In this document: positions 1,957-14,015 of the stretch, piece after piece
How positions within the stretch are numbered: the first letter of the stretch is position 1
Layout: the number at the start of each line of letters is the position of its first letter
UHGV virus genome: UHGV-0089399
Source of the DNA: a virus
Reading direction: 5' to 3' (one strand)
Length of the DNA stretch: 22,830 nucleotides
The notes under the pieces: generated by a model
What the model saw: only the letters and a program-made list of their open reading frames with translations
Told to the model about the DNA's origin: nothing
The model's database searches: none
Position numbers and translations under genes: made by a program

Positions 1957-2454
1957 TCAGTGCCACGATTTTTGCTTCTTCAGTGAATCGTATTGCTGTT
2001 CGCAGGATTCTCCTGCAATCCGATACTTTTCAGCCTCAGCTGCTGTTGCGTTGTAAACTCGATTGCTTTCTTCAAGCATGTCGGCGAGCACACCGATGAC
2101 CTTGCTGGCTGGCGTGCCAGTGGGGAAAGATCCGGTATAGTGTTCGGCGAGTCGCTTGGTTTTGTCAAGCTCGGCGCGCAGGCTGTCAGCAGCGGCATTA
2201 GCATGCTCAGCATCAACACGCGCCACATCGATACGGGATTGTGCTTCACGTTCAATTTGTGTTTTCTCCTGATCACGTTGTGACCTGGCCTTATCATCAG
2301 CCTGTTTCTGATCTTCCTGTGCCTGCGCATACCCGGCATCGTACTGGCGGCTGCCGTGCATATTCCAGGCAACCACTCCGACGATGAACAGAGCAGCAAG
2401 CATCAACACGATAAGCAACTGTTTCCAGTATGCTTTTACGAATGCCCAGATCAT
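1957..2454 (-). CDS. i-spanin (Rz-like lysis protein)
   Basis: 165 aa with an N-terminal transmembrane helix ([18 protein letters not shown]) followed by a charged coiled-coil periplasmic domain. Its ATG overlaps the endolysin stop (ATGA). Last gene of the lysis cassette. Confidence 0.75.
1980..2228 (-). CDS. o-spanin (Rz1-like lipoprotein) embedded in the +1 frame of the i-spanin gene
   Basis: Alternative-frame ORF wholly inside the Rz-like gene. Encodes [17 protein letters not shown] with lipobox L-T-A-C, followed by a Pro-rich short periplasmic segment ([19 protein letters not shown]). ATG confirmed at 2228; a later ATG at 2213 is an alternative start. Confidence 0.55.
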   Translation of the reverse strand: MWRVLMLSMLMPLLTACAPSLTKPSDSPNTIPDLSPLARQPARSSVCSPTCLKKAIEFTTQQQLRLKSIGLQENPANSNTIH

Positions 2455-3080
2455 ACCGCCAGCACATTACTGGCAGTGATGTACCGCGCTCTCCGGTCGT
2501 CGATGCCGTTCCTGCCACCATTGATAATCAAAGTTACACGAGCAATATCGCCGGTATACTTCATGCAACCTTTGCTGGAGAAGAACCACGCCGCGCTACG
2601 AGCCGCATATTCGTCCTGCGCTAACAGTTCAGGATTCTCCAGCAGGTCCACTTTCAGGCCGTTTCCGCAGTCACGATAGTTATTCAAACCGGTAATCTGG
2701 ATAAGTCCACGGCCTCGGTAATTCCAGCCGTCACCAGGGGAATTGTTCCCCATGCGTTTGCTGTACACCAGATTGGCGATCGCTCGCTGGCGCTCGAGTG
2801 GCAATGGTGGTTCACCAGCACGGCGACCCAGTGCATTAGCCTGCCCCTGAGTGAGACGCCCAGCCCGAACGAAGTTAGCCAGACCGCTGACACTGTAGTT
2901 GAAATTCTCCTGCAATCTGGTGAAGCCCACAGATTCATGCCCGACCTGAGCAATAAACATTGCCTGATCCTCTGCTTTGCTGATACCAAACTCTTTCATC
3001 GCAGAAGTTATATGCGAGAACCAGCGAGCGGCCAGCGCCTCTCTAATACCAGCAGCTCGCTGGAATTGTTTAATCTCCAT
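2451..3080 (-). CDS. Endolysin, glycoside hydrolase family 19 (chitinase-like lysozyme)
   Basis: 209 aa with GH19-like motifs (QVGHESVGF ... [16 protein letters not shown]). Sits between the holin-like genes and the spanins, with overlapping start and stop codons. Confidence 0.8.
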
Positions 3081-3378
3081 GTTTAGACCTCGTTATTTTG
3101 AAAATCTGAACGACGTTACCGCGCGTTTTAATAACCGCAGCAAGCATGACAGCGTTGATAATGACCTCAGATAAATCCACAGCCATTGGCGTGCGTAACC
3201 AGATTGCATAAACGACACGAACAGGAATACTGGCCGCAGCAACAATCAGGAAATAAGCAATCCACCCACCCCATCTTCGGTGTTGAGATCCGTTACGCTG
3301 GAAAGTGACAACGCGAATTGCTATGCCAGTACAAATAACTGCATTGGTGATAAGTAAAAACAGGTCATGCGTTACCAT
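3070..3378 (-). CDS. Holin/antiholin-like small membrane protein
   Basis: 102 aa with 2-3 predicted transmembrane segments and a charged C-terminus. Overlaps the endolysin start by 11 nt and the upstream membrane-protein gene by 14 nt. Confidence 0.5.
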
Positions 3379-3781
3379 CGTCTTTTCTCCCCGGAATTAA
3401 CTCGCGTGGATTATCGGAACGGTGATAGAGCCAGATACCAATTCGCACTGCGACAATTGCTGATACGAATGCGCCAGCAGAGAAAACAATCCCTTTCTCG
3501 AACGAGTCCTGCGTGATGGTAGGGATCAGGCTGGCTATGCCGATAAGAATTGATGCTGCTGGTTTGTAAAAAAGAAGGCCGCAGAGAAAGCTGAGCATCG
3601 ACAAGAATACGCGACGACGAATTGGATACTCTACCGCAGAGGTAACAAAAATTACCGCACCAGCAAGAGCACCGAGCGCCACCTCTGGCGGAACACCTAC
3701 GATAACCGCAGCAAGAGAGCTCACACTAAGCCATTGATTTAAAGACTCAGTTGTTATGTTAACCGACATAGCACACACCAT
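3365..3781 (-). CDS. Holin-like membrane protein
   Basis: 138 aa with several hydrophobic helices and a charged C-terminal tail ([18 protein letters not shown]). First gene of the lysis cassette. Two in-frame ATGs 4 codons apart (MVCAM). Confidence 0.5.
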   Translation of the reverse strand: MVCAMSVNITTESLNQWLSVSSLAAVIVGVPPEVALGALAGAVIFVTSAVEYPIRRRVFLSMLSFLCGLLFYKPAASILIGIASLIPTITQDSFEKGIVFSAGAFVSAIVAVRIGIWLYHRSDNPRELIPGRKDDGNA

Positions 3782-3944: not shown

Positions 3945-6551
3945 TTATTTCCTGCAAACTCCAGATGATGTTAATCCATCAAAAATAACCTGCACTCTGG
4001 CAATAACAACATCAACTCCAGAAGTCGTTTCACTTGCATAACCAAGTTTTATTTTAGATACAATATCCTGAGTAAGTTCAGATATTTCAGTTTCTGCAAT
4101 GTTACCAGAGGCCATGTGATTATCGTATGCCATAGAATGAATTCCATTATTGACATCGATTGAACTAGTATGTTTGTGAAAAATAGATGGGTTTACCTGA
4201 AACGAATTTGAACCGATAAGATCAGAAGATACTCCATTCATCACTGCAGTACAGCGTGGAATATTATTATCGGTTATTGTCATATGCAGACGGTTACCAG
4301 TTAACCCCTCACCAAGTGTGACATAATACGCCAATTCTCCACCTGCATATTGTTTCCCCTCAACAATAACAGTAATCCCTCTTAATTTCTGATTAGCTAG
4401 CAAAAACTTATTACTGTCTATATAGCATTTATTTGCGGAACCAAAAACAGCCCCTTCTAAAATATCTGATGAATAGGAATAAATAAGGTCACCAGAAACA
4501 AAGGAAAGAATATCAGATACGTTTCCTTTTTTAGATAAGTTGGGAGAATAGCTATTAACTATTTCATATTGTCCTGTGATAAAATCAAGGTAAACGCCAT
4601 CAGTTTTCATCTCTTTAAAGAAAATGCTATTAAAGCATCCATCAAGAACCGGTGGATATATTCTAGAGCTTGCATAAGCTGTTGGGTGATTCTTATTATT
4701 ACCACTACCAGGCGAATAAACATCTTCGTTAGTCATTGACTTTTTAAGCTTAACAGGAATCATCGGCTGCATATCAATTTTGCAGTTCCCTGAACCACCG
4801 ATGCGAGGATAAAATAAACCACCAAACCTTACAATATTACTACTGAATAGTATTTCGTTATCGTTAAGTGTTATCTCAACGAAGTTTCCAATAAGTTTAA
4901 ATTCAACTGAAAACAAACCAAGTGGAGCAGATAATTTAACAATATTGCGCATAAAAACACCTACAGTCCCTGTTGATGCAGTATAGTGTGTGGTTTCAAA
5001 GGCAGAGCCTGTATATTTCAAGTTAATGAAATTATTATGGTATGAAGACAATTGGAATTGAATCCCAGAACTAAGGATTTCAATATCTACAAATTGAATC
5101 CTTACGGAGTAAGAATATGATAAATCTTCATATTCATAAGGCAATGTAACATCTTTTGAAATAGTTGCCCTCACATAATTACCAGAAACCACATCAACCC
5201 CATCACGTACTGCATTAAAGTAACGATTAAAATCAATAAGCCCAGCGCCAACATACTGCGCATATGAACGAGTCCATCCTGCCATTGCGTTTCGTCCATT
5301 CTGAGCTTCTAAACTGCTAAATTCAGAGTCACTTGTGGTACTTGATGGGAGGATATTTGTACAAAAAACAATTTCAGGCATTGAAGTAATATCATTCAGT
5401 TCAGCCATCAATTTAAAAAAAGTTTTCTGCGGGAAGTTACCAACATCCCAACCATCTCCGTCATTCATGCCAAAAGCAATAATAACAACATCAGGGTTAA
5501 TATCACGAATGTAATCAATCCAGCGTCTGTTCGTGTCTGAATACCATGGGTACTGTGAGTTATAAGAAGTAATTGCTGGTGTATCTTTTCCAAGGTCATA
5601 GTACCTCATTCCACCAATTGCTCTGTTAAATAAAGTAGAACTTGGGAATTTCTCTTGCAAAACTCTCTTAAGATGAGCGGCAAAAATGCTTGATCGATCC
5701 ACTGTGCTTATATTATATGGGGCACTTAAGCTGTCACCAACTAACACTATTTTTGAGTTAGGCCTTGATAATCTCTCAAGTGTTTTAGATGTGACTAAAC
5801 TGCAGGAATTAATGAACTGAGTACTATTTAGCGTCTGTTCAAGTGTATCACCAAATCTGGTACCAACGTATGATGATCCGTTGACACTTGCTAGCTTAAG
5901 GCATAAATCAGCAGTATCTGTAATTGAAAAAATAGGAACAGGACGTCCTAAACTGTCATACCCCTGAATTGAGTTTGCCCTAGAAGATGCTGATGCCATT
6001 TCGCTTACTATCTCAGGGAAGCGGAGTGTTTTAGATATGTTGCTGTTAATAACTCCTTTGATAGATGAGTCTGTATATTTCTTCGTGGAAGCGTCCTGAG
6101 GAAATAATGGATCATCAAGGTTACGAATACGATTGCCGAGTGCATCGTAGTAAGTGGCACTAAATGATGGTTTACGAAGAGCCAGCCGAGCCATGCTTTT
6201 GACTAACTGGATCAGCATCGTTAGCTTATCAAAAGCATCCTCATGCACTTCCGCAAAGAACTTACCCTGATTGCGCAGATCAGTTTCCTGTGTAACCGGT
6301 AGCTCTCGTGATATAGAAATCTTATAGCCATTGGCCAACGCCTTCGACAATATTACATTTCCACCATTGTATCCTCCGGCCCCGGTAACTATATAATCAG
6401 TATCAAGAGTCAGTACGGTGATATTTTCATGAATATCAACAACCTGCACAATCAAATCAGATTTATTGAAAACCCTAAAGGCATACGGAAACGATGTCGT
6501 AACGCCGTTACCGGTGTATTCGTTGTGGTCAACTTCGGTTGAGACCGTCAT
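3945..6551 (-). CDS. Tail fiber/tailspike with T7 gp17-like N-terminal anchor and SGNH/GDSL hydrolase (esterase-like) domain
   Basis: 868 aa. N-terminus (EYTGNGVTTSFPYAFRVF...LTLDTDYIV) resembles the conserved T7 tail-fiber N-terminal domain. Central GDS block (VLVGDSLSAPY), a conserved Gly block and a GxND block (VVIIAFGMNDG) are typical of SGNH hydrolases. GGAG ribosome-binding site upstream. Confidence 0.8.
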   Translation of the reverse strand: MTVSTEVDHNEYTGNGVTTSFPYAFRVFNKSDLIVQVVDIHENITVLTLDTDYIVTGAGGYNGGNVILSKALANGYKISISRELPVTQETDLRNQGKFFAEVHEDAFDKLTMLIQLVKSMARLALRKPSFSATYYDALGNRIRNLDDPLFPQDASTKKYTDSSIKGVINSNISKTLRFPEIVSEMASASSRANSIQGYDSLGRPVPIFSITDTADLCLKLASVNGSSYVGTRFGDTLEQTLNSTQFINSCSLVTSKTLERLSRPNSKIVLVGDSLSAPYNISTVDRSSIFAAHLKRVLQEKFPSSTLFNRAIGGMRYYDLGKDTPAITSYNSQYPWYSDTNRRWIDYIRDINPDVVIIAFGMNDGDGWDVGNFPQKTFFKLMAELNDITSMPEIVFCTNILPSSTTSDSEFSSLEAQNGRNAMAGWTRSYAQYVGAGLIDFNRYFNAVRDGVDVVSGNYVRATISKDVTLPYEYEDLSYSYSVRIQFVDIEILSSGIQFQLSSYHNNFINLKYTGSAFETTHYTASTGTVGVFMRNIVKLSAPLGLFSVEFKLIGNFVEITLNDNEILFSSNIVRFGGLFYPRIGGSGNCKIDMQPMIPVKLKKSMTNEDVYSPGSGNNKNHPTAYASSRIYPPVLDGCFNSIFFKEMKTDGVYLDFITGQYEIVNSYSPNLSKKGNVSDILSFVSGDLIYSYSSDILEGAVFGSANKCYIDSNKFLLANQKLRGITVIVEGKQYAGGELAYYVTLGEGLTGNRLHMTITDNNIPRCTAVMNGVSSDLIGSNSFQVNPSIFHKHTSSIDVNNGIHSMAYDNHMASGNIAETEISELTQDIVSKIKLGYASETTSGVDVVIARVQVIFDGLTSSGVCRK

Positions 6552-6746: not shown

Positions 6747-7004
6747 ATGCAGCGGTATCACTATCCACTGGAAGACGGATTTACCGAAAGGATTCACACG
6801 CCGGGAGGCGTCAGGTCACTGGTGGAGGGATCGCACTTGATGAAATTACTCCGGGATCTCGATAAGGATGGATTTAATGTCGATGGCCCACTTGCCGAAC
6901 TGACTGCACTGATTAACTACGTCACCAGCTCACAGATGTCTATGCGGGATCTGCAAACACATCTCGACTATTGTGCCGAACAATTACGAAAACAAACCAG
7001 ATAA
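6747..7004 (+). CDS. Small protein paralogous to the C-terminal domain of the downstream Bro-N protein
   Basis: GGAG ribosome-binding site 8 nt upstream of the ATG. Residues ERIHTPGGVRSLVEGSHLMKLLRDLDKDGFNVDGPLAELTALINYV...MRDLQTHLDY align with RSLIHSPSGVLGLTENSLLMNLLNQLQEDGHDVSGAAAELTTMFCYI...LRDIQTHAEY of the 7319-8011 product. Confidence 0.55.
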   Translation: MQRYHYPLEDGFTERIHTPGGVRSLVEGSHLMKLLRDLDKDGFNVDGPLAELTALINYVTSSQMSMRDLQTHLDYCAEQLRKQTR

Positions 7005-7022
7005 GGTTTGCAATTACCAAGT

Positions 7023-7066
7023 GGAGTGCTTATATTTACCTTTGAGGTAAATTTACATCGCACTCC
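7023..7066. repeat. Compound inverted repeat containing palindrome copy 2 (ATTTACC-N5-GGTAAAT)
   Basis: Outer arms GGAGTGC (7023-7029) / GCACTCC (7060-7066) enclose inner arms ATTTACC (7034-7040) / GGTAAAT (7046-7052). Confidence 0.5.
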
Positions 7067-7143
7067 TCTTGTGCCATAGTAATCGGGCACTGGCAAAATC
7101 CGGTGCCGGGATTGGTCTCCCGGATTACTACAGAGGCACATAT

Positions 7144-7164
7144 GCCGCATAAGCGGTTTTTTTT
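7144..7164 (+). terminator. Weak intrinsic terminator/attenuator-like hairpin with U8 tract
   Basis: Short stem CCGC-ataa-GCGG followed by tttttttt, between the small ORF and the Bro-N gene. The stem is short, so function is uncertain. Confidence 0.35.
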
Positions 7165-7318
7165 ATGTGTAAAGCGCACCTATTCTATGGTGGGCTGTGT
7201 GGGGGCACCGAAAGGTGCGCCGGGTTCCTTTGTAGCCGGTAAGACCAACTCTGCACAGTTCACCACCATCTGATTGGTCTCAGCGGTGGTGATTAACCTA
7301 ACTACAAAGGTGATCGCC

Positions 7319-8011
7319 ATGAATACCAAACCTTCCATCTTTTCCTTTGAGTCATCCTGCCAGATCCGTATGTTCATGATTGACGGAGAACCTTGGTTTG
7401 TCACCAAAGATGTGTGCAATGCTTTGAATATTGATGTTACACAAGCGAGAAAACTTGATAAAAAAGGCTGGAACAAAAAGGGGCTGTATTCAATACAGAC
7501 CCCTGGTGGAATACAAGAACTATCCATCGTTTCAGAATCAGGTCTCTACATCCTTATTCTGCGTTGCAAAGAGGCAATGACTGAGGGAACGAGAGCATTC
7601 AGATTTCTTGAATGGGTTACAGGCGAGGTTCTTCCTCAGATCCGCCGCACCGGAAGTTACATTAAAAACTCGCTACCGCAGGAAGAACGCATAAAGATGG
7701 TTGCCGACCAGGTAGCCAACGCCACGGCGTCAGCAGTAATGCAGGCGATGAAGATAGAGAACAAAACCTACAACGCCCCGCTGAAGCCCGGCTACCGCAG
7801 CCTGATTCATTCCCCGTCTGGTGTTCTCGGCCTGACGGAGAACTCACTGCTGATGAATCTGCTGAACCAGTTACAGGAAGACGGGCACGACGTATCGGGC
7901 GCGGCGGCGGAGCTGACCACCATGTTCTGCTACATCGTCGGTGTGAGCAAATGCCTGCGTGATATCCAGACGCACGCGGAGTACATCAACGACAAAGCAG
8001 GGTTCTTCTGA
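7319..8011 (+). CDS. Bro-N domain protein (phage antirepressor-like)
   Basis: N-terminal region (FSFESSCQIRMFMIDGEPWFVTKDVCNALN...ESGLYILILRCKEAMTEGTRAFRFLEWVTGEVLPQIRRTGSY) matches the Bro-N/KilA-N-type domain pattern. AGGTGA ribosome-binding site upstream of the ATG at 7319; the track ORF begins earlier at a non-ATG codon. Confidence 0.8.
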   Translation: MNTKPSIFSFESSCQIRMFMIDGEPWFVTKDVCNALNIDVTQARKLDKKGWNKKGLYSIQTPGGIQELSIVSESGLYILILRCKEAMTEGTRAFRFLEWVTGEVLPQIRRTGSYIKNSLPQEERIKMVADQVANATASAVMQAMKIENKTYNAPLKPGYRSLIHSPSGVLGLTENSLLMNLLNQLQEDGHDVSGAAAELTTMFCYIVGVSKCLRDIQTHAEYINDKAGFF

Positions 8012-8140: not shown

Positions 8141-8467
8141 ATGACAAAACTTGGATTCGTGATGAGAGGTCCGGTAAGAAGCGGAACTCATGCAAAGCGT
8201 AGCAAGAGTCGTATTTTTACTGGTAAGGTTGTAGCACGTAAATCAGCTATTGGCTCGTTCAATAGTGAAAATGCGGCATTGCGCCATATTTTTATCAGCA
8301 CAAAGCCAAGAGCATCCGCTGATGTGCATACAATGACTATTCCTATCACAAAGAATATAAAGCGGATAAAAAAGCTCTCATCTGCAGAATCAAAAGAGAT
8401 ATCTTTCCGCCAGCTTAACTCATTAGAAACGCATATGAAGGAAGAGGAATTCGATGTTTTTGAGTGA
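8141..8467 (+). CDS. Hypothetical basic protein (108 aa), first gene of a coupled pair
   Basis: GGAG ribosome-binding site 8 nt upstream. Lys/Arg-rich N-terminus. The 3' end overlaps the next gene by 14 nt. AT-rich relative to flanking DNA. No motif I recognise. Confidence 0.5.
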   Translation: MTKLGFVMRGPVRSGTHAKRSKSRIFTGKVVARKSAIGSFNSENAALRHIFISTKPRASADVHTMTIPITKNIKRIKKLSSAESKEISFRQLNSLETHMKEEEFDVFE

Positions 8468-8966
8468 GTATAGCGGGAAGGTTATACCTACTGGTGAGTT
8501 TAAAACTGATGACTTTCTGATTTCGCTAAAAGATGCTTTTAAACAACACTGGCGTCATGGTCATCATCCTGATCTGGGAAAAGATACTCTTTTTGAAAGA
8601 CCAGACGAAGTATTAGGTTTCCATCTCAGAAAGGTTCATGTCAATATTGGTGAATATGCATCATATTCATACTCATGTACTGAACAGTGTTGGGATGAGT
8701 GGTCATATGGATTGATTGATGAACAAGGAAATTACAGGCCAAAACCAACCAGTAACGCATATCTCATATATGCAGTCAATGAAATAAGAGATGCAGCCTT
8801 ACTAGCTTATTGGGACCCGCCCGCACACACCAAAGCTAACGCAAAAGTTTGGATGGATTCCGTATTGAATTTCACAAAATTATTTCATGAACGAACGAAT
8901 ACAGCTCCACTTAGTAGAAATGTTTATCCGTGGGATTATTCGTACAAATCCAAAAAGCCTGCATAG
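8454..8966 (+). CDS. Hypothetical protein (170 aa), second gene of a coupled pair
   Basis: GAGG ribosome-binding site inside the upstream gene; start overlaps the upstream stop region. Contains a His-rich stretch (WRHGHHPD). No recognisable family. Confidence 0.5.
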   Translation: MFLSEYSGKVIPTGEFKTDDFLISLKDAFKQHWRHGHHPDLGKDTLFERPDEVLGFHLRKVHVNIGEYASYSYSCTEQCWDEWSYGLIDEQGNYRPKPTSNAYLIYAVNEIRDAALLAYWDPPAHTKANAKVWMDSVLNFTKLFHERTNTAPLSRNVYPWDYSYKSKKPA

Positions 8967-9047
8967 TAGTTTTTTATGGACGAAACAAAAGTCAGTGCTA
9001 CACTCATTGACGCCACATTGAGGTGGATTATAGATGGAAATTTCACA

Positions 9048-9209
9048 ATGAAAAAAGCATTTGCTGCACTGTTCGTTTTGTTGTCTCTGGTAGCTTCAAC
9101 TCAGGCCTTTGCCGGTCGTTGTCAGCACGACAGCGATACTGCCGCTGACGGCTCCCGCTGCGGTGGGCGTTCTGCGGATTCCCGCCCGGGCGGCGGTGGC
9201 ATTCGTTAA
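9048..9209 (+). CDS. Small secreted peptide (53 aa precursor) with Sec-type signal peptide
   Basis: MKKAFAALFVLLSLVASTQAFA-GRCQHD... with a predicted AFA-G cleavage site. The mature part is about 31 aa, Gly/Arg/Ser-rich with 2 Cys. The longer track ORF from 8976 lacks a ribosome-binding site and would bury the signal peptide. Confidence 0.4.
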   Translation: MKKAFAALFVLLSLVASTQAFAGRCQHDSDTAADGSRCGGRSADSRPGGGGIR

Positions 9210-9231
9210 AAACAAGGCCGCGAAAGCGGCC
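9207..9231 (-). terminator. Rho-independent terminator of the minus-strand structural operon
   Basis: GC stem GGCCGC-gaaa-GCGGCC (9216-9231), followed on the minus strand by TTGTTTTTA. Lies about 10 nt after the stop of the 9241-9537 gene. Confidence 0.6.
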
Positions 9232-9240
9232 TGTGACATG

Positions 9241-9537
9241 TCACGTCCCTTTTCTGAATGATAGCCATTCGAAAAATGATGACATTCCACCGCAGACAAT
9301 AGCAAAGATGATCCCACCAAAGAAGAGAAGGCCAGCCTGCCACCACTCCCACCGCCATACATCCACAGCGCCAACCATACCAACAATCGCTCCAACAAAT
9401 GGAATATAGCTCACGATGAAAGCAATGGGGGCTGCAATTATCCAGTGCAATCCCCACCATGATTCAAGCCCAGCCATAATTGCTGCCAACTGAAAAAGAC
9501 CAACGACGATATAAACAATGAATCCTATAGCTTGCAT
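9241..9537 (-). CDS. Small integral membrane protein (98 aa, about 3 TM helices)
   Basis: Strongly hydrophobic, Trp-rich sequence. AGGTGA ribosome-binding site 4 nt upstream of the ATG. Positioned after the ejection-protein genes. Confidence 0.6.
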   Translation of the reverse strand: MQAIGFIVYIVVGLFQLAAIMAGLESWWGLHWIIAAPIAFIVSYIPFVGAIVGMVGAVDVWRWEWWQAGLLFFGGIIFAIVCGGMSSFFEWLSFRKGT

Positions 9538-9549
9538 GTAGTCACCTAT

Positions 9550-9723
9550 TTACCCAGTAAAAATAAGAGGCCTCCCCTCAATAAGGCTTGCAACAAGAAC
9601 TACTCCCTGCACAACAAAGATGAACCAGCAAATAGCTTGAGTCTGAGGGTTAAGAAAATATTTGTAGCGGTCAATAAATAACAATCCACCAGAAATTATC
9701 ACACTCAAAATAATTAAAAACAC
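9550..9723 (-). CDS. Putative small 2-TM membrane protein (about 58 aa, GTG start), not in the ORF track
   Basis: Hand translation of the minus strand gives VFLIILSVIISGGLLFIDRYKYFLNPQTQAICWFIFVVQGVVLVASLIEGRPLIFTG-stop. AGGAAG lies just upstream of the GTG. Fills the gap between the gp16-like gene and the 98-aa membrane protein. Confidence 0.3.
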   Translation of the reverse strand: MFLIILSVIISGGLLFIDRYKYFLNPQTQAICWFIFVVQGVVLVASLIEGRPLIFTG

Positions 9724-9732
9724 AACACTTCC

Positions 9733-12207
9733 TTATTGCGGAGTGACATCCTGAGGTCGCCACCAGTATGTCTGGTTAAACTCTTTCTTCGAACGTTGCT
9801 CCATTTTACGCAAATAGCCTAGTGAAAAATACTCCTGCATCTGATTAAAGATCATGTGATCGAGAGCCGCCTTCAAGTACCAGAGATTCGCACCTGGCAT
9901 CAAACCTTTCCCCAGCTTCACCAGATCACCACCAGTCTGCTCACTCTTCCCTTCCACAGCATTTAACGGTATGCCCTGAGCAATCTTCACTACGTCATCA
10001 ACCAGACCAGCTACCGGGCCAAGCATCGACGCCAGCGCGCCGCTTCCGTACCTAGTGTGATCTGACAATAAAAAGTCACCATAAAGGCCAAGACCACCAC
10101 CTTTCAGTAGAGCACCAAGCCAGAATTTTGCGGCATCTTCTCCTGTCATCTCTCGAGGATTACGACCAGACGCAAGGTCGTTAAGTTGTTGCGACAAAGC
10201 GCCAAGAATGGTCGTACTGGCAATAAACGTCGCAATATATGCCGCACGCCCACCAGCAGACGGCATACCCATAGCGCGTGACCAGTGACGCATAACAACC
10301 GAGATAGGGAACGATTTAAACAGGAAAACACTTCTCGTTAATTCACCTTTCCATGTTCCACGCTGAATACCAGAACCGGTTATCAGTTGCTCACGTGCTC
10401 CCGGTGTAATAACAGCCATATCAACTTCTTCAGTTACGGCACCGAGCAGTTTACGCATTGCCTCAAATTTCACGCGTTCAGGCTCACCAAGATGTTTAAC
10501 TGCTGAATCAGGGATACGCATAATGCTTTCCGGTGTCAGCATCGTATTATTACCGTTCCCCCAGTCCTCCTGTTGCGCCAGCTTCCATACGCTCCAGTCT
10601 GTGTCAGTAATCCCTTTGCTTTTCAGGATACGAAAATCAGAGTCATCGAGGCTACGAAGGTCTGGTGTTCGTGACACTACTTCTCCCAGGCTTCCCATCA
10701 TGGTTACGCCATAGGCGCGCTTGTGCGCATCTGACCATGCTGTAAGCCCACTGGCACGCATTACCGCCGTTGCCGCCCAACGAGACACTGACGGCCCCAT
10801 ATTATCCATCGCCCAGCGGTTAACGCTGCCAAGTAGAGATTCCATCGCCAGACCAGCGCGGCGCGCCCGCGCAAGTTCTGTACGGTTCGTTGGGTCCATA
10901 GCTTCAAGCTGGTTGCGGAATAACTGGTTCATTGGAAGGTTGGTAACCTTCGCAGACAGATACATGGTTCCAAGATCAGAGAACGATGACAGCAACGCGG
11001 ATCCGAGTCTGCTGGCAACCAGCCAGTTGCGGATATTGTCAGACCATCGCGCGATGTGCGGATTCGCTACAGGCTGTGTCTTTCCGGAAATAAAGTTGTA
11101 CAGATTCTCTGTGTTGTTCGCTAGCCGCTCGACTTTACCGGTTTTACTCGGGTTAGCGGTTGCCGTTTCTGCCTTCACCTGATCAAGAAGAGAGCGGAAA
11201 ACATGATCGGGGTTTGGGCCATATGTTTCCACCAGTGCAATATCTTTACTGATACCTTCCAGGTGACCGACCATGATTTCCCATAGAGAGCGATCGCCAT
11301 AAAGTTGCTGATATTGCAGATAGGAATCTGCATCTTTGAAATGTATCTGTCGTGATGCATTACCACGGTTAGCACGTGCGCCGGAAATTCGCATTCCGGT
11401 ATCAGTAAGCTTATTCAGCCCACCAGTAGCGATCGTGTTATAAGCCTCTCCAAGAAATGCAGACAACTCGGCATCGTTCATCAGTTGTCCATCGGCTCGG
11501 ATATAATATTTGCGATCCAGCTTACCTATAACATCGCTAACCCACTTATCCTTTGATACCGCCCCAACCTTTTCCATAGAATGATGTTGAGGGATCCCCC
11601 AGTTTTCGAGATAGCCAATGTCCCCACCAGCATCATTAAACCGGCGGCGCAGCAGCTCTGTAACTTCTCTCCACGCCTTAGCACCTTTTCTTGCTTTAGC
11701 ATTGCCAGTATTTTGCCCCCGCATTTCATATACCAAGTCACGTACGCCCGCTTCATCTTCAAACAGACCAAAAAAGCGAGGATCAACTGCTTCGAATGCC
11801 TCCTGCAATTGACTCAATGCATAATCACGGGTGGCTTTTGTTCTGGATTCAACAGAGAGGAAATTAGATTTACCGTCTGCATTAAAAGCTATAGTACGGT
11901 TAAGAGCGCCAAGTTTCCCATCAGCCCCTTGATAGCTATTGATAAATTTATCCAATCTCTGACGCGCGGCTATAGTGAGAGCCACACGACGTTTCTTTAA
12001 TGCCGCTTCTCGCTGTAATTCTTCAGATGCCAATTGTGCTGCTCGATATAGCCGCTCTGATTCGGAAAGTTGTCGCCACGACATCGGGTCATCACGAGCA
12101 ATGGAGCGCATATTTCGATAAATGCGGTCTTCAATGTTCTGTATTTCTCGCGCCGTTAACGTGCGCTGCGCCGCCTGCTGGACCGCTTGTATACATTCCT
12201 GTCTCAT
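9733..12207 (-). CDS. Internal virion/ejection protein, gp16-like C-terminal part
   Basis: 824 aa. C-terminal region (FLFKSFPISVVMRHWSRAM...AAYIATFIASTTILGA) resembles the T7 gp16 C-terminal hydrophobic segment as recalled. GAGG ribosome-binding site upstream. Follows the 600-aa gene after a 5-nt gap. Confidence 0.65.
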   Translation of the reverse strand: MRQECIQAVQQAAQRTLTAREIQNIEDRIYRNMRSIARDDPMSWRQLSESERLYRAAQLASEELQREAALKKRRVALTIAARQRLDKFINSYQGADGKLGALNRTIAFNADGKSNFLSVESRTKATRDYALSQLQEAFEAVDPRFFGLFEDEAGVRDLVYEMRGQNTGNAKARKGAKAWREVTELLRRRFNDAGGDIGYLENWGIPQHHSMEKVGAVSKDKWVSDVIGKLDRKYYIRADGQLMNDAELSAFLGEAYNTIATGGLNKLTDTGMRISGARANRGNASRQIHFKDADSYLQYQQLYGDRSLWEIMVGHLEGISKDIALVETYGPNPDHVFRSLLDQVKAETATANPSKTGKVERLANNTENLYNFISGKTQPVANPHIARWSDNIRNWLVASRLGSALLSSFSDLGTMYLSAKVTNLPMNQLFRNQLEAMDPTNRTELARARRAGLAMESLLGSVNRWAMDNMGPSVSRWAATAVMRASGLTAWSDAHKRAYGVTMMGSLGEVVSRTPDLRSLDDSDFRILKSKGITDTDWSVWKLAQQEDWGNGNNTMLTPESIMRIPDSAVKHLGEPERVKFEAMRKLLGAVTEEVDMAVITPGAREQLITGSGIQRGTWKGELTRSVFLFKSFPISVVMRHWSRAMGMPSAGGRAAYIATFIASTTILGALSQQLNDLASGRNPREMTGEDAAKFWLGALLKGGGLGLYGDFLLSDHTRYGSGALASMLGPVAGLVDDVVKIAQGIPLNAVEGKSEQTGGDLVKLGKGLMPGANLWYLKAALDHMIFNQMQEYFSLGYLRKMEQRSKKEFNQTYWWRPQDVTPQ

Positions 12208-12212
12208 TTAAT

Positions 12213-14015
12213 TTAACCTCTCAAGAAACACGCCACAGCGACATCAAACAGGCTGGAATCCTGTATTGCCTGCTCACTTTCCCTGTTCGCTTCATCCAGT
12301 ACTTCACGCGCGCTGCGCGATTGTGGATTACCATCATCATCCAGCACGGTGATTATCATGTCAGGTGATTCAAGCAGCGAGTCTTCAGCTATGCGCAGAT
12401 CAATATCTCCTGCCTGATCTGACATCATTTTTTGTTCTGCCTGTTGCAATATTTTATCAGGCTCAAAAGGAGCTACTTCGTCTGGCGTCCTGACCTCTGC
12501 TGTTTTATAGAATGAAACAGCCTGAGCATTAAGTTCACTTTCTGCCTGCTGTCTCCGAGCCAGTTCTGCTAGAGCTTCAAAAAACTGACCGCCAGGCTCG
12601 TGCGGTGCCAACGCGTTACGGGAAAATTCCAGGCGTTCTTGTGCCTGCCGGATTCGTTGATCAATATCGCGAAGTCTGGCCTGTTTATCTGATCGAGCAC
12701 GAGACAAAGCTTTACCGCTACCGGTTGGCTCTTCTGCAAGAATTTGTGCACGCTGTTCAGTGAGATTTTCAATAATTCGTTGGCTATTAGCGATTTCCGA
12801 CTGGTAAACCTGTCTATCGCCACGCGGCAAAAGCTGCGCGGCCTGTTCTTCAAGCAACCGATTTTCTATAGCGCGCGCCGTTACTCCATCATCTACAGAT
12901 GACAGAGCCTCATTAACTGCCTGAGACAGCAGACTCTTGCGCCCAGGAATTTCACTGAAAGATGCAGACTCAACAATGCTGGCAACGTCTACAGGTCTCC
13001 CCTGGCTAACATCAGACATGGCTTTTCGCAGAGCCTGAATGTGAGAATTGCGCGAAAGCACGTTGATCGGCACGCCGGGAGCAATATCAATTTCAGCATG
13101 ATGAGCGGCATTCGCCGCCAGTGCAGCATCGACATCAACTGGTGAAAAATTTGGTGCGCTTGTAGACTCGCCGCGAGAGTTAATAAATCTGCCGACACCA
13201 CCAAACGCCACTCCAAGAACAGCATCAATAGCAATTGCCTGTCGATCCAACACATCATACTGATTAGCCATTTCGCTATAGCCACCATCACGAAGCGTTT
13301 TTGCAGTAAGCCCACGCTGTGCCATACCGAACGCAATATTTGTACCTGCGGCATAGGCAATATCTGGCGTTGCACGTACTGCTGTTGCTGCGGCGCGTCG
13401 CACTGAACTTTCACCCGTCCGCGCAAGCTGAGCCGCCACACCTTCCGCCAGCGCACCACCAGCACGTAACCCGAGGCTCATAGGGATCAGTGTTCCGGCA
13501 CCAGCAGTAATACCCTGCACTAATCCCGCTTCCTGCGCCGTCCTGAAATCAACACCCTGTGCTGTCAGCCGTTCAAACTCAGAAAAACCCTGTAGCGAAG
13601 TTACCGCCGCAGCACCTCCGACCGGACCACCGAGCGTTGTACCGACAACAGCCTGCCCGCCCATATCGAACAACCCATAAAGGACCTGCCCGGCGGTTCC
13701 GGTTGTCGCGGCATCAGGCGTCAGCCGCTTAACCTGCTGCTCTGCTAGTTTTCTCTGCTCAGCAATGTATGAAACTGAAGTGTCATTGAACGAGGTGTTT
13801 TCGTTAACAAACTGAGCAATCGGGGATACGATTTTATCCATCCCTGCCCATAGCAACTGATCTGGCTTTGCCACCAGCCCGGAGTACAAACCAGACAATG
13901 CCGCTCCTACAGCATTGTCGAAAAAACCAACATCGCTGTTAAATCCAGCTGGATTTGATGCAGCTTCGTCAAGCTGCTGATTCTGGTTTACTGGATTAAG
14001 GCCAAAGTAACTCAT
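12213..14015 (-). CDS. Internal virion/ejection protein (gp16-like N-terminal part or separate core protein)
   Basis: 600 aa, Gly/Ala-rich with coiled-coil segments. Start overlaps the upstream stop (ATGA). Position between the gp15-like and gp16-like genes. Confidence 0.6.
   Translation of the reverse strand: MSYFGLNPVNQNQQLDEAASNPAGFNSDVGFFDNAVGAALSGLYSGLVAKPDQLLWAGMDKIVSPIAQFVNENTSFNDTSVSYIAEQRKLAEQQVKRLTPDAATTGTAGQVLYGLFDMGGQAVVGTTLGGPVGGAAAVTSLQGFSEFERLTAQGVDFRTAQEAGLVQGITAGAGTLIPMSLGLRAGGALAEGVAAQLARTGESSVRRAAATAVRATPDIAYAAGTNIAFGMAQRGLTAKTLRDGGYSEMANQYDVLDRQAIAIDAVLGVAFGGVGRFINSRGESTSAPNFSPVDVDAALAANAAHHAEIDIAPGVPINVLSRNSHIQALRKAMSDVSQGRPVDVASIVESASFSEIPGRKSLLSQAVNEALSSVDDGVTARAIENRLLEEQAAQLLPRGDRQVYQSEIANSQRIIENLTEQRAQILAEEPTGSGKALSRARSDKQARLRDIDQRIRQAQERLEFSRNALAPHEPGGQFFEALAELARRQQAESELNAQAVSFYKTAEVRTPDEVAPFEPDKILQQAEQKMMSDQAGDIDLRIAEDSLLESPDMIITVLDDDGNPQSRSAREVLDEANRESEQAIQDSSLFDVAVACFLRG

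Follow-up and report, generated by a model that had tools for sequence, protein, structure and literature searches.

A stretch of 22,830 nucleotides (nt) from UHGV virus genome UHGV-0089399, referred to below as the window, carries at positions 9241–9723 two genes for small membrane proteins of 57 and 98 amino acids (aa), p57 and p98. An original prediction had picked out these genes for their place at the end of the ejection-protein operon, where phage P22 has the superinfection-exclusion gene sieA; the coordinates it gave are exact, and both genes lie on the minus strand. Comparison with related phages and prophages indicates that p57 and p98 occupy a slot with fixed borders, in which recombination exchanges one to three genes for envelope products. 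We propose, with somewhat less than even confidence, that the two proteins are accessory envelope cargo of this slot and may block the DNA entry of other phages at the inner membrane. Coordinates of the features are collected in Table 1.

The window derives from a temperate podovirus resembling epsilon15 and phiV10 (genus Uetakevirus), found as an E. coli prophage; between 9100 and 9900 it shares 99.8% identity with Escherichia phage HEMP4 and 99.0% with phiv142-3. The left border of the slot is the gene for a gp17-like protein, which matched PHROG 684 ('virion structural protein') with E = 0 and aligned over its full length with epsilon15 gp17 (28% identity, E = 5e-108). Hardies et al. (PMC4819975) placed epsilon15 gp17 in the T7 gp16/IVP-D family of internal virion (ejection) proteins. 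Because the window protein is a homologue of epsilon15 gp17, the label 'gp16-like' used in the original prediction is acceptable, and two small membrane proteins do follow this gene, in the order gp17-like, p57, p98. The gp17 stop codon overlaps the Shine-Dalgarno (SD) sequence of p57, leaving a gap of 9 nt between the two genes, and the TAAGGA at this junction is kept in phiV10, BUCT711 and SPN1S.

On the far side, the slot ends in the perfect palindrome GTGACATGTCAC and an intrinsic terminator. The terminator scan returned a stem of 7 pairs (6 of them G-C) with a loop of 4, and the RNA fold (–19.2 kcal/mol, z = –2.1) bears out the claim that a strong terminator closes the unit. This terminator is kept in phiV10, BUCT711, SPN1S and epsilon15, and is annotated as such in phiV10 and epsilon15. 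The palindrome occurs once in the window and in one copy per locus at 85 of the 104 loci examined, whatever the cassette (L005 9518–9529, L007 6302–6313, L002 6047–6058 and others). Its carriers include phiV10, SPN1S and BUCT711, and also epsilon15 and Cronobacter prophages, despite gp17 proteins that are merely 28% and 24% identical, respectively, to that of the window. The palindrome may serve for protein binding, as an RNA hairpin or as a border for recombination. The GTGA within it supplies the stop codon in several cassettes, and a weak promoter-like site on the plus strand (9233–9262) begins inside it.

We surveyed the region downstream of gp17 in 80 IMG/VR contigs whose gp17 is 94–100% identical to that of the window. 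Both p57 and p98 were present in 36 of the 80. Another 25 contigs carried the 46-aa protein (p46) of phiV10 (p21) and SPN1S, which has two transmembrane (TM) segments and belongs to PHROG 7892, and 19 carried a lipoprotein of either 137 aa (PHROG 8691) or 126 aa (PHROG 3716). Every cassette type begins 12–13 nt after the gp17 stop. A small two-TM open reading frame (ORF), which precedes the 126-aa lipoprotein in some cases, has the same frameshift in seven independent contigs (L026, L048, L055, L063, L070, L075 and L092; ∼4985–5150): its first part is a 39-aa ORF, its second TM segment (AAAWFGFVVFGIVLFGRIIK) lies in a different frame, and an intact 54-aa form is found in L164. The shared frameshift suggests that small slot genes are dispensable.

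A second survey covered viral contigs found with an alignment of closer p98 homologues. Here all 80 viral copies of p98 had an IVP-D gene upstream, and the palindrome and terminator came directly after p98 in at least 65 of them. Copies of p98 that are 89–100% identical stand behind three IVP-D types sharing 24–27% identity. In Cronobacter, p98 is 60% and gp17 24% identical to the window counterparts, and p98 follows the IVP-D gene directly, with a 1-nt gap and no p57. Other contigs have between IVP-D and p98 a 54-aa two-TM protein, a 103-aa protein with one TM segment, secreted proteins of 123 and 175 aa, a 51-aa two-TM protein together with a 107-aa lipoprotein, or a 204-aa protein. Nearly all slot products have a signal peptide, a lipobox or a TM segment, the 204-aa protein being outside this tally.

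Although the original prediction spoke of a pair, the two genes are not a functional pair, as each occurs without the other. We found p57 alone in Salmonella and K. oxytoca prophages (L013, L015), and p98 alone in L007–L012 and L020; its settings without p57 include a different Salmonella podovirus prophage and, after a reverse-oriented gene, Yersinia. An obligate two-gene system is thus ruled out. In the K. oxytoca locus (L015, ∼5270–5550), p57 is followed by another small hydrophobic ORF, absent from the gene calls (MNINLKRFLIAIYTVTLILSALALSERNF...), and then by the palindrome, making a further cassette type. Of 5426 complete E. coli genomes, 216 had the cassette, RefSeq annotating p98 and not p57 there; it also occurs in Klebsiella, Salmonella, Citrobacter and Cronobacter prophages. 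A link between cassette and serotype or receptor was considered and rejected, since the p57–p98 cassette accompanies three unrelated tailspike receptor-binding domains.

The smaller of the two genes had been predicted as a GTG-initiated, two-helix protein of about 58 aa that was missing from the ORF track. Its actual size is 57 aa, and public records agree in leaving it out: p57 is unannotated in RefSeq E. coli E2865, phiv142-3 and BUCT711, and is called by NCBI in other genomes. The hydropathy profile of p57 has two hydrophobic segments (residues 1–17 and 30–50), and an AlphaFold2 model shows a helical hairpin (2–20/26–49) with a mean predicted local distance difference test score (pLDDT) of 76. 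The DRYKYF loop between the helices is basic, with an average of 2.1 lysine and arginine residues across the family, and probably lies on the cytoplasmic side. Homologues of p57 formed 13 clusters, 67–98% identical, from E. coli, Citrobacter, Klebsiella, Salmonella and Enterobacter. The start codon keeps one position, occupied by GTG in the window and in a Salmonella Muenchen prophage, by TTG in Klebsiella phage BUCT711 and by ATG in K. oxytoca. The gene has a GC content of 36.8%, compared to 49.4% for gp17; p98, at 46.5%, has no distinct composition.

Might p57 be a chance ORF or a decayed remnant, p98 alone being real? The gaps in its annotation, the non-ATG start and the lack of any match in Pfam, PHROGs, NCBIfam or PADLOC would fit this, as would the frameshift in a related two-TM ORF of some phages. 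However, frame and length are kept across five genera, pairwise ratios of non-synonymous to synonymous rates (dN/dS) are 0.18–0.38 at dS values of 0.5–1.3, the SD sequence is good, and the K. oxytoca copy starts with ATG. We find a chance origin scarcely credible, and the substitution pattern indicates that p57, like p98, is a genuine gene under purifying selection. Readthrough of the gp17 stop into p57 was also considered. The two frames are joined in register in the window (12 nt), whereas at K. oxytoca L015 and the p46 loci L094 and L097–L100 the spacing from the gp17 stop is 13 nt, which breaks the frame; the stop is TAA, and readthrough was ruled out. The 3' end of p57 (9564–9580, minus strand) contains a weak hairpin of three G-C pairs and some G-T pairs, with TTTTT after it. 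Transcription into p98 could be attenuated there, but the hairpin is probably a chance feature, because it is weak and the coding sequence there differs in BUCT711.

The small two-TM proteins of the slot are treated here as analogues, because hhalign found no homology between the p57 family and either the p46 family (probability 1.6%) or epsilon15 gp18 (0.5%); the p46 and gp18 families likewise have no detectable homology to one another. By eye, the 54-aa two-TM protein of L164 has an A-x2-WF-x-F/I-V-x-G stretch resembling the second TM segment of p57. The epsilon15 gp18, phiV10 p21 and SPN1S_0020 genes share with p57 the slot itself, the start spacing, a two-TM hairpin with a basic loop, the palindrome and the terminator. 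They differ in belonging to other PHROGs (7892, 29212), in the absence of p98 from those phages and in having no detectable homology to p57. A literature search covering epsilon15 gp18, the small membrane proteins of phiV10, and transcript and virion mass-spectrometry work on uetakeviruses turned up nothing about these genes.

Gene p98 starts with ATG 12 nt beyond p57 and has an SD sequence of its own. The p57/p98 junction, AATAGGTGACTACATG, is identical in BUCT711. GenBank gives the phiv142-3 product (Orf12; L001 6142–6498) as a 118-aa form from an upstream TTG, overlapping the unannotated p57; we take the 98-aa form as correct because of the conserved ATG and its SD sequence. As predicted, the Trp-rich product is a membrane protein with, by hydropathy, three hydrophobic segments (residues 1–21, 33–56 and 71–87), and AlphaFold2 modelled it at a pLDDT of 90.9, with helices at 2–28, 32–42, 46–59 and 65–97. 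At the invariant Pro46 the middle segment splits into a pair of short helices, 32–42 and 46–59. Across the family, nearly all lysines and arginines are in the C-terminal tail, while the two loops have none and are acidic and rich in Trp; from this charge distribution, the C-terminus would be placed in the cytoplasm. A topology of two TM segments and a re-entrant hairpin at Y44-I-P46, with the Trp-rich loops in the periplasm, appears no less likely than one with three true TM segments.

Conservation of p98 is strong. Compared with its BUCT711 homologue it shows 44 synonymous and 8 non-synonymous differences (dN/dS 0.022), and values range from 0.02 to 0.16 overall. The whole protein (residues 1–98 of 98) matched PHROG 3075 (E = 1.6e-54), a family with no assigned function, and it carries the signature of that family, G-x2-Q-x2-A ... 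W-x-G ... (Y)-x-P-x2-G-x3-G-x2-GA ... W-x-W ... A-x2-LFF. Invariant residues are G13, Q16, A19, W27, G29, P46, G49, G53, G56, A57, W63, A68, L71, F72 and F73.

Close homologues of p98 formed 52 clusters, and a profile search of 1.84 billion representative proteins retrieved 736 clusters at E ≤ 1e-3 and 314 at E ≤ 1e-10, family size being counted in representative clusters at 50% identity. Scans of p98 against Pfam, NCBIfam and PADLOC gave nothing significant, the family has no Pfam domain and no informative name (a word search of the profile hits returned 'hypothetical protein' alone), and Foldseek found no match with E < 3 for the p98 model in PDB or BFVD. The p98 module is a widespread membrane domain without a Pfam entry. 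The module spans ∼95 aa, and some longer relatives fuse it to DUF805, RDD or MORN domains; fusions or multiple copies were seen in P0071, P0074, P0083, P0086, P0088, P0162 and others, with up to four copies in tandem (P0074). Relatives are also found next to integrases, in integrative elements that are not podoviral (L018/L019, from a JGI metagenome contig, and Mesorhizobium L102); there they lack an upstream IVP-D gene, and the flanks examined show no virion genes. In the Mesorhizobium element (7001–7659), a DUF805 gene comes directly after the p98 relative.

A consensus scan of the coding strand from 9200 to 12300 returned no sigma-70-like promoter, although a weak or activator-dependent site could escape such a scan. 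Given this and the gaps of 9 and 12 nt, expression with the late operon is implied. Most simply, p57 and p98 would be transcribed as the tail of that operon, and they are probably translated from their own SD sites. Late expression would fit a role in protecting the infected cell better than immunity of the lysogen in the classical sense.

These features bear on whether the two proteins serve the phage's own particle, either as late helpers that chaperone the membrane-active ejection proteins gp15–gp17, hold them inactive or help to assemble them in the producing cell, or as minor virion or ejectosome components. Phages with 94–100% identical gp17 carry non-homologous proteins in the slot, or a lipoprotein with no small TM protein, and one of the two-TM genes is frameshifted identically in seven contigs. 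Conversely, near-identical p98 serves IVP-D proteins that are 24–27% identical, and its relatives reside in integrative elements whose examined flanks showed no virion genes. What argues for such a helper is the tight coupling of the genes to gp17 in the late operon, the position of p98 behind an IVP-D homologue in every one of the 80 viral contigs (down to the 1-nt gap in Cronobacter), and the presence of some small two-TM gene at this place in each of epsilon15, phiV10 and SPN1S. Virion or ejectosome proteins should be conserved in all members and co-vary with their partners, and p57 and p98 do neither. Because slot content changes between phages with near-identical gp17, the virion role that the original prediction had allowed for is disfavoured, and we regard helpers or minor components of the ejection machinery as quite unlikely.

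The original prediction had likewise raised lysis accessory factors. Such a role would be one in lysis timing, as a holin, antiholin or pinholin-like factor. Both proteins are small, have several TM segments and would be made late, and p98 gave a weak match to Phage_holin_5_2 (PF16079; E = 0.027), whose 15.2 bits are far under the 29.2-bit cutoff. The phage has a complete lysis cassette ∼5.5 kb away, beyond the tailspike, the alternative occupants of the slot include lipoproteins and secreted proteins, and Foldseek matches to holins had E > 7. With the lysis cassette elsewhere and the holin match below threshold, lysis factors are disfavoured, and we consider them very unlikely.

We therefore return to accessory cargo that interferes with DNA entry. 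We take the genes as accessory, not structural, because they are missing from phages that share this gp17, and because one and the same p98 goes with widely differing gp17 proteins. Our suggestion of entry interference rests on three points: the slot products are envelope-bound, the slot adjoins an accessory region, and P22 offers a precedent at the same place. Recombination would swap one to three envelope genes between the gp17 stop/ribosome-binding site and the palindrome plus terminator. The products p57 and p98 would then alter the inner membrane so that another phage's DNA cannot enter, as functional analogues of P22 SieA, T4 Imm and HK97 gp15, with the acidic, Trp-rich loops of p98 as the likely contact surface. 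In a bolder version, the slot after the IVP-D gene would be a dedicated exchange site for anti-phage envelope proteins, and p98 would found a family of entry blockers (at least 736 clusters) whose loops jam the gp16/gp17-type DNA channel of incoming podophages; this we think improbable.

The P22 precedent needs qualification. SieA is a protein of 162–164 aa that crosses the membrane three times and bears the motif FxRYPxEAxxFNK on the cytoplasmic side, its types A–C span about 160–200 aa with 3–4 TM segments, it acts on the ejection proteins gp16 and gp20 and thereby stops DNA delivery, and it is found in 22 of 66 P22-like phages (PMC10883804). Like SieA, p98 is predicted to reside in the inner membrane with about three TM segments, and is encoded between the last ejection gene and the antirepressor/tailspike region of a temperate podovirus. 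The 'sieA-like position' of the original prediction is therefore right as to gene order (ejection gene, small membrane protein, antirepressor region, tailspike), but strand and promoter differ: p57 and p98 are co-directional with gp17, whereas the P22 record shows sieA antisense to gene 16, on the opposite strand and with its own annotated promoter. Moreover, p98 is only 98 aa long, with no soluble part, and exclusion is proven for SieA and predicted at most here. BLASTP of p98 against P22 SieA (164 aa) gave E = 20, that is, no similarity; FxRYPxEAxxFNK, or indeed any RYP, is absent from p57 and p98; and SieA falls in PHROG 7745, p98 in PHROG 3075 and p57 in no PHROG. From these comparisons, the likeness to sieA is one of position only, with no family membership.

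Other exclusion systems offer partial parallels. T4 Imm and HK97 gp15 are very small inner-membrane proteins that block phage DNA entry. HK97 gp15 is a moron inside the late operon, present in some relatives only and expressed by the prophage from its own promoter. Compared by description only, these proteins and p57/p98 are alike in being very small and, for p57/p98 by prediction, in the inner membrane, whereas gp15 has its own promoter and our scan found none for p57 and p98. Imm is also listed in PMC11436027. Scans of p57 and p98 with PHROG and PADLOC gave no match annotated as exclusion.

Lambda bor and lom, phi80/N15 Cor and T5 Llp resemble p57 and p98 as extra envelope genes among conserved late genes, with their own terminator and, in the case of p57, a deviant composition, and the alternative lipoprotein cassettes of the slot resemble Cor, Llp and Bor. 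For p57 and p98 the crude consensus scan found no promoter of the classical moron type, and there is no sequence relationship. The cassette has further hallmarks of a moron, being present or replaced between conserved neighbours (36, 25 and 19 of the 80 contigs for p57 plus p98, p46 and lipoproteins, respectively) and having its own terminator and, for p57 only, deviant base composition. As judged from these comparisons, p57 and p98 would belong to a known class, the small envelope proteins of moron type; what stands out is a hypervariable slot with sharp bounds, together with its unvarying palindrome and the size of the unnamed p98 family.

Several observations weigh against exclusion as the function. 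First, neither protein is similar to known exclusion or defence proteins in any of the comparisons made (none in PADLOC, E = 20 for p98 against SieA, and none with E < 3 for the p98 model in Foldseek). Second, the lack of a coding-strand promoter and the short gaps imply late expression, unlike sieA, which is expressed from the prophage. Third, p98 is very strongly conserved (dN/dS 0.02), and cellular proteins have its domain in fusions with DUF805, RDD or MORN, so that a general membrane role fits at least as well as an arms race. Finally, its unbroken association with an IVP-D gene in the viral contigs could mean a tie to the phage's own ejection protein.

Some of these observations would also fit cargo for lysogenic conversion or host fitness, by a change of the envelope unrelated to phage entry. 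Lambda Bor and Lom, examples in stress or serum tolerance, are of this kind. The slot is accessory, its products of inferable location are nearly all envelope proteins, the p98 domain is widespread outside phages, where it is fused or adjacent to DUF805 and RDD, and epsilon15 itself uses a 66-aa two-TM protein as an O-antigen polymerase inhibitor, according to its record annotation. The p57 family, however, is not homologous to that epsilon15 alpha-polymerase inhibitor (hhalign probability 0.15%), and the cassette shows no tie to the kind of tailspike or receptor. No promoter for the lysogen was detected, and in viral contigs p98 always follows an ejection gene. On balance, we hold host-fitness cargo to be unlikely, and continue to favour interference with DNA entry.

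If slot occupants do block DNA entry, the slot would be a compact and recognizable source of new envelope-level exclusion proteins, with about ten cassette genes seen so far. The cassette is common, as the counts above show, and could, if this is true, affect the host range of therapeutic podophages. In addition, p98 would then give a first clue to what a widespread membrane domain without a Pfam family does. If exclusion is not the function, the case is an ordinary one, of two hypothetical membrane proteins ending a late operon. Annotation gains either way, in that the 57-aa gene is real and often not called.

Table 1. Features of the slot and its surroundings in the window
Feature	Positions	Strand	Description
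Lysis cassette	1957–3781		Phage_holin_8, Phage_holin_3_7, GH19 endolysin, DUF2514 Rz-like protein
Tailspike	3945–6551	–	Conserved N-terminal head-binding domain (∼200 aa); Lipase_GDSL_2 (GDSL/SGNH esterase), E = 2.4e-9
Bro-N antirepressor	7274–8011	+	Accessory region; also in relatives
Intrinsic terminator	9205–9232	–	Stem-loop AGGCCGC-TTTC-GCGGCCT (9232–9215), then TGTTTTTAAC
Palindrome GTGACATGTCAC	9233–9244		Perfect, 12 bp; right border of slot; includes p98 stop TGA (9243–9241)
p98	9241–9537	–	98 aa, ATG start, Trp-rich, three hydrophobic segments
p98 SD sequence	9542–9547	–	AGGTGA, 4 nt before ATG
p57	9550–9723	–	57 aa, GTG start, two predicted TM helices; stop TAA at 9552–9550
Stop/SD overlap	9728–9735	–	gp17 stop TAA (9735–9733); AAGGAAG (9734–9728), 4 nt before p57 GTG
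gp17-like gene	9733–12207	–	824 aa; last large gene of ejection operon; left border of slot

The region between the ejection gene and the tailspike is an accessory region paralleling P22 immI. Directly across the terminator, and converging on it, is a plus-strand ORF of 77 aa (8976–9209), for which an internal signal peptide (MKKAFAALFVLLSLVASTQAFA) is the likelier start, making a product of 53 aa. Its matches are PHROG 3117 and PHROG 14503 ('membrane associated protein', moron category), and the unrelated phages TL-2011b and EC.W1-9 share it at 98–99%. This ORF, and not p57 or p98, has the convergent orientation of sieA. Further along are overlapping plus-strand ORFs of 108 aa (8141–8467) and 170 aa (8454–8966), within a block of low GC content (∼38–39%). 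The 170-aa product gave a weak Pfam match to YafO toxin (E = 9.5e-4, below cutoff), and the two may form a toxin-antitoxin-like accessory pair; Cronobacter relatives have a HicA/DUF1902 pair in the corresponding region. The esterase domain of the tailspike suggests a deacetylating receptor-destroying enzyme.

Beyond the lysis cassette, near the prophage end, are two more plus-strand genes. One (687–1205) encodes a product of 172 aa that matches the glycine-zipper family Rick_17kDa_Anti and, below threshold, TraT-like proteins, the other (1221–1760) a DUF5384 protein (E = 1e-60), and both are probably further envelope morons.

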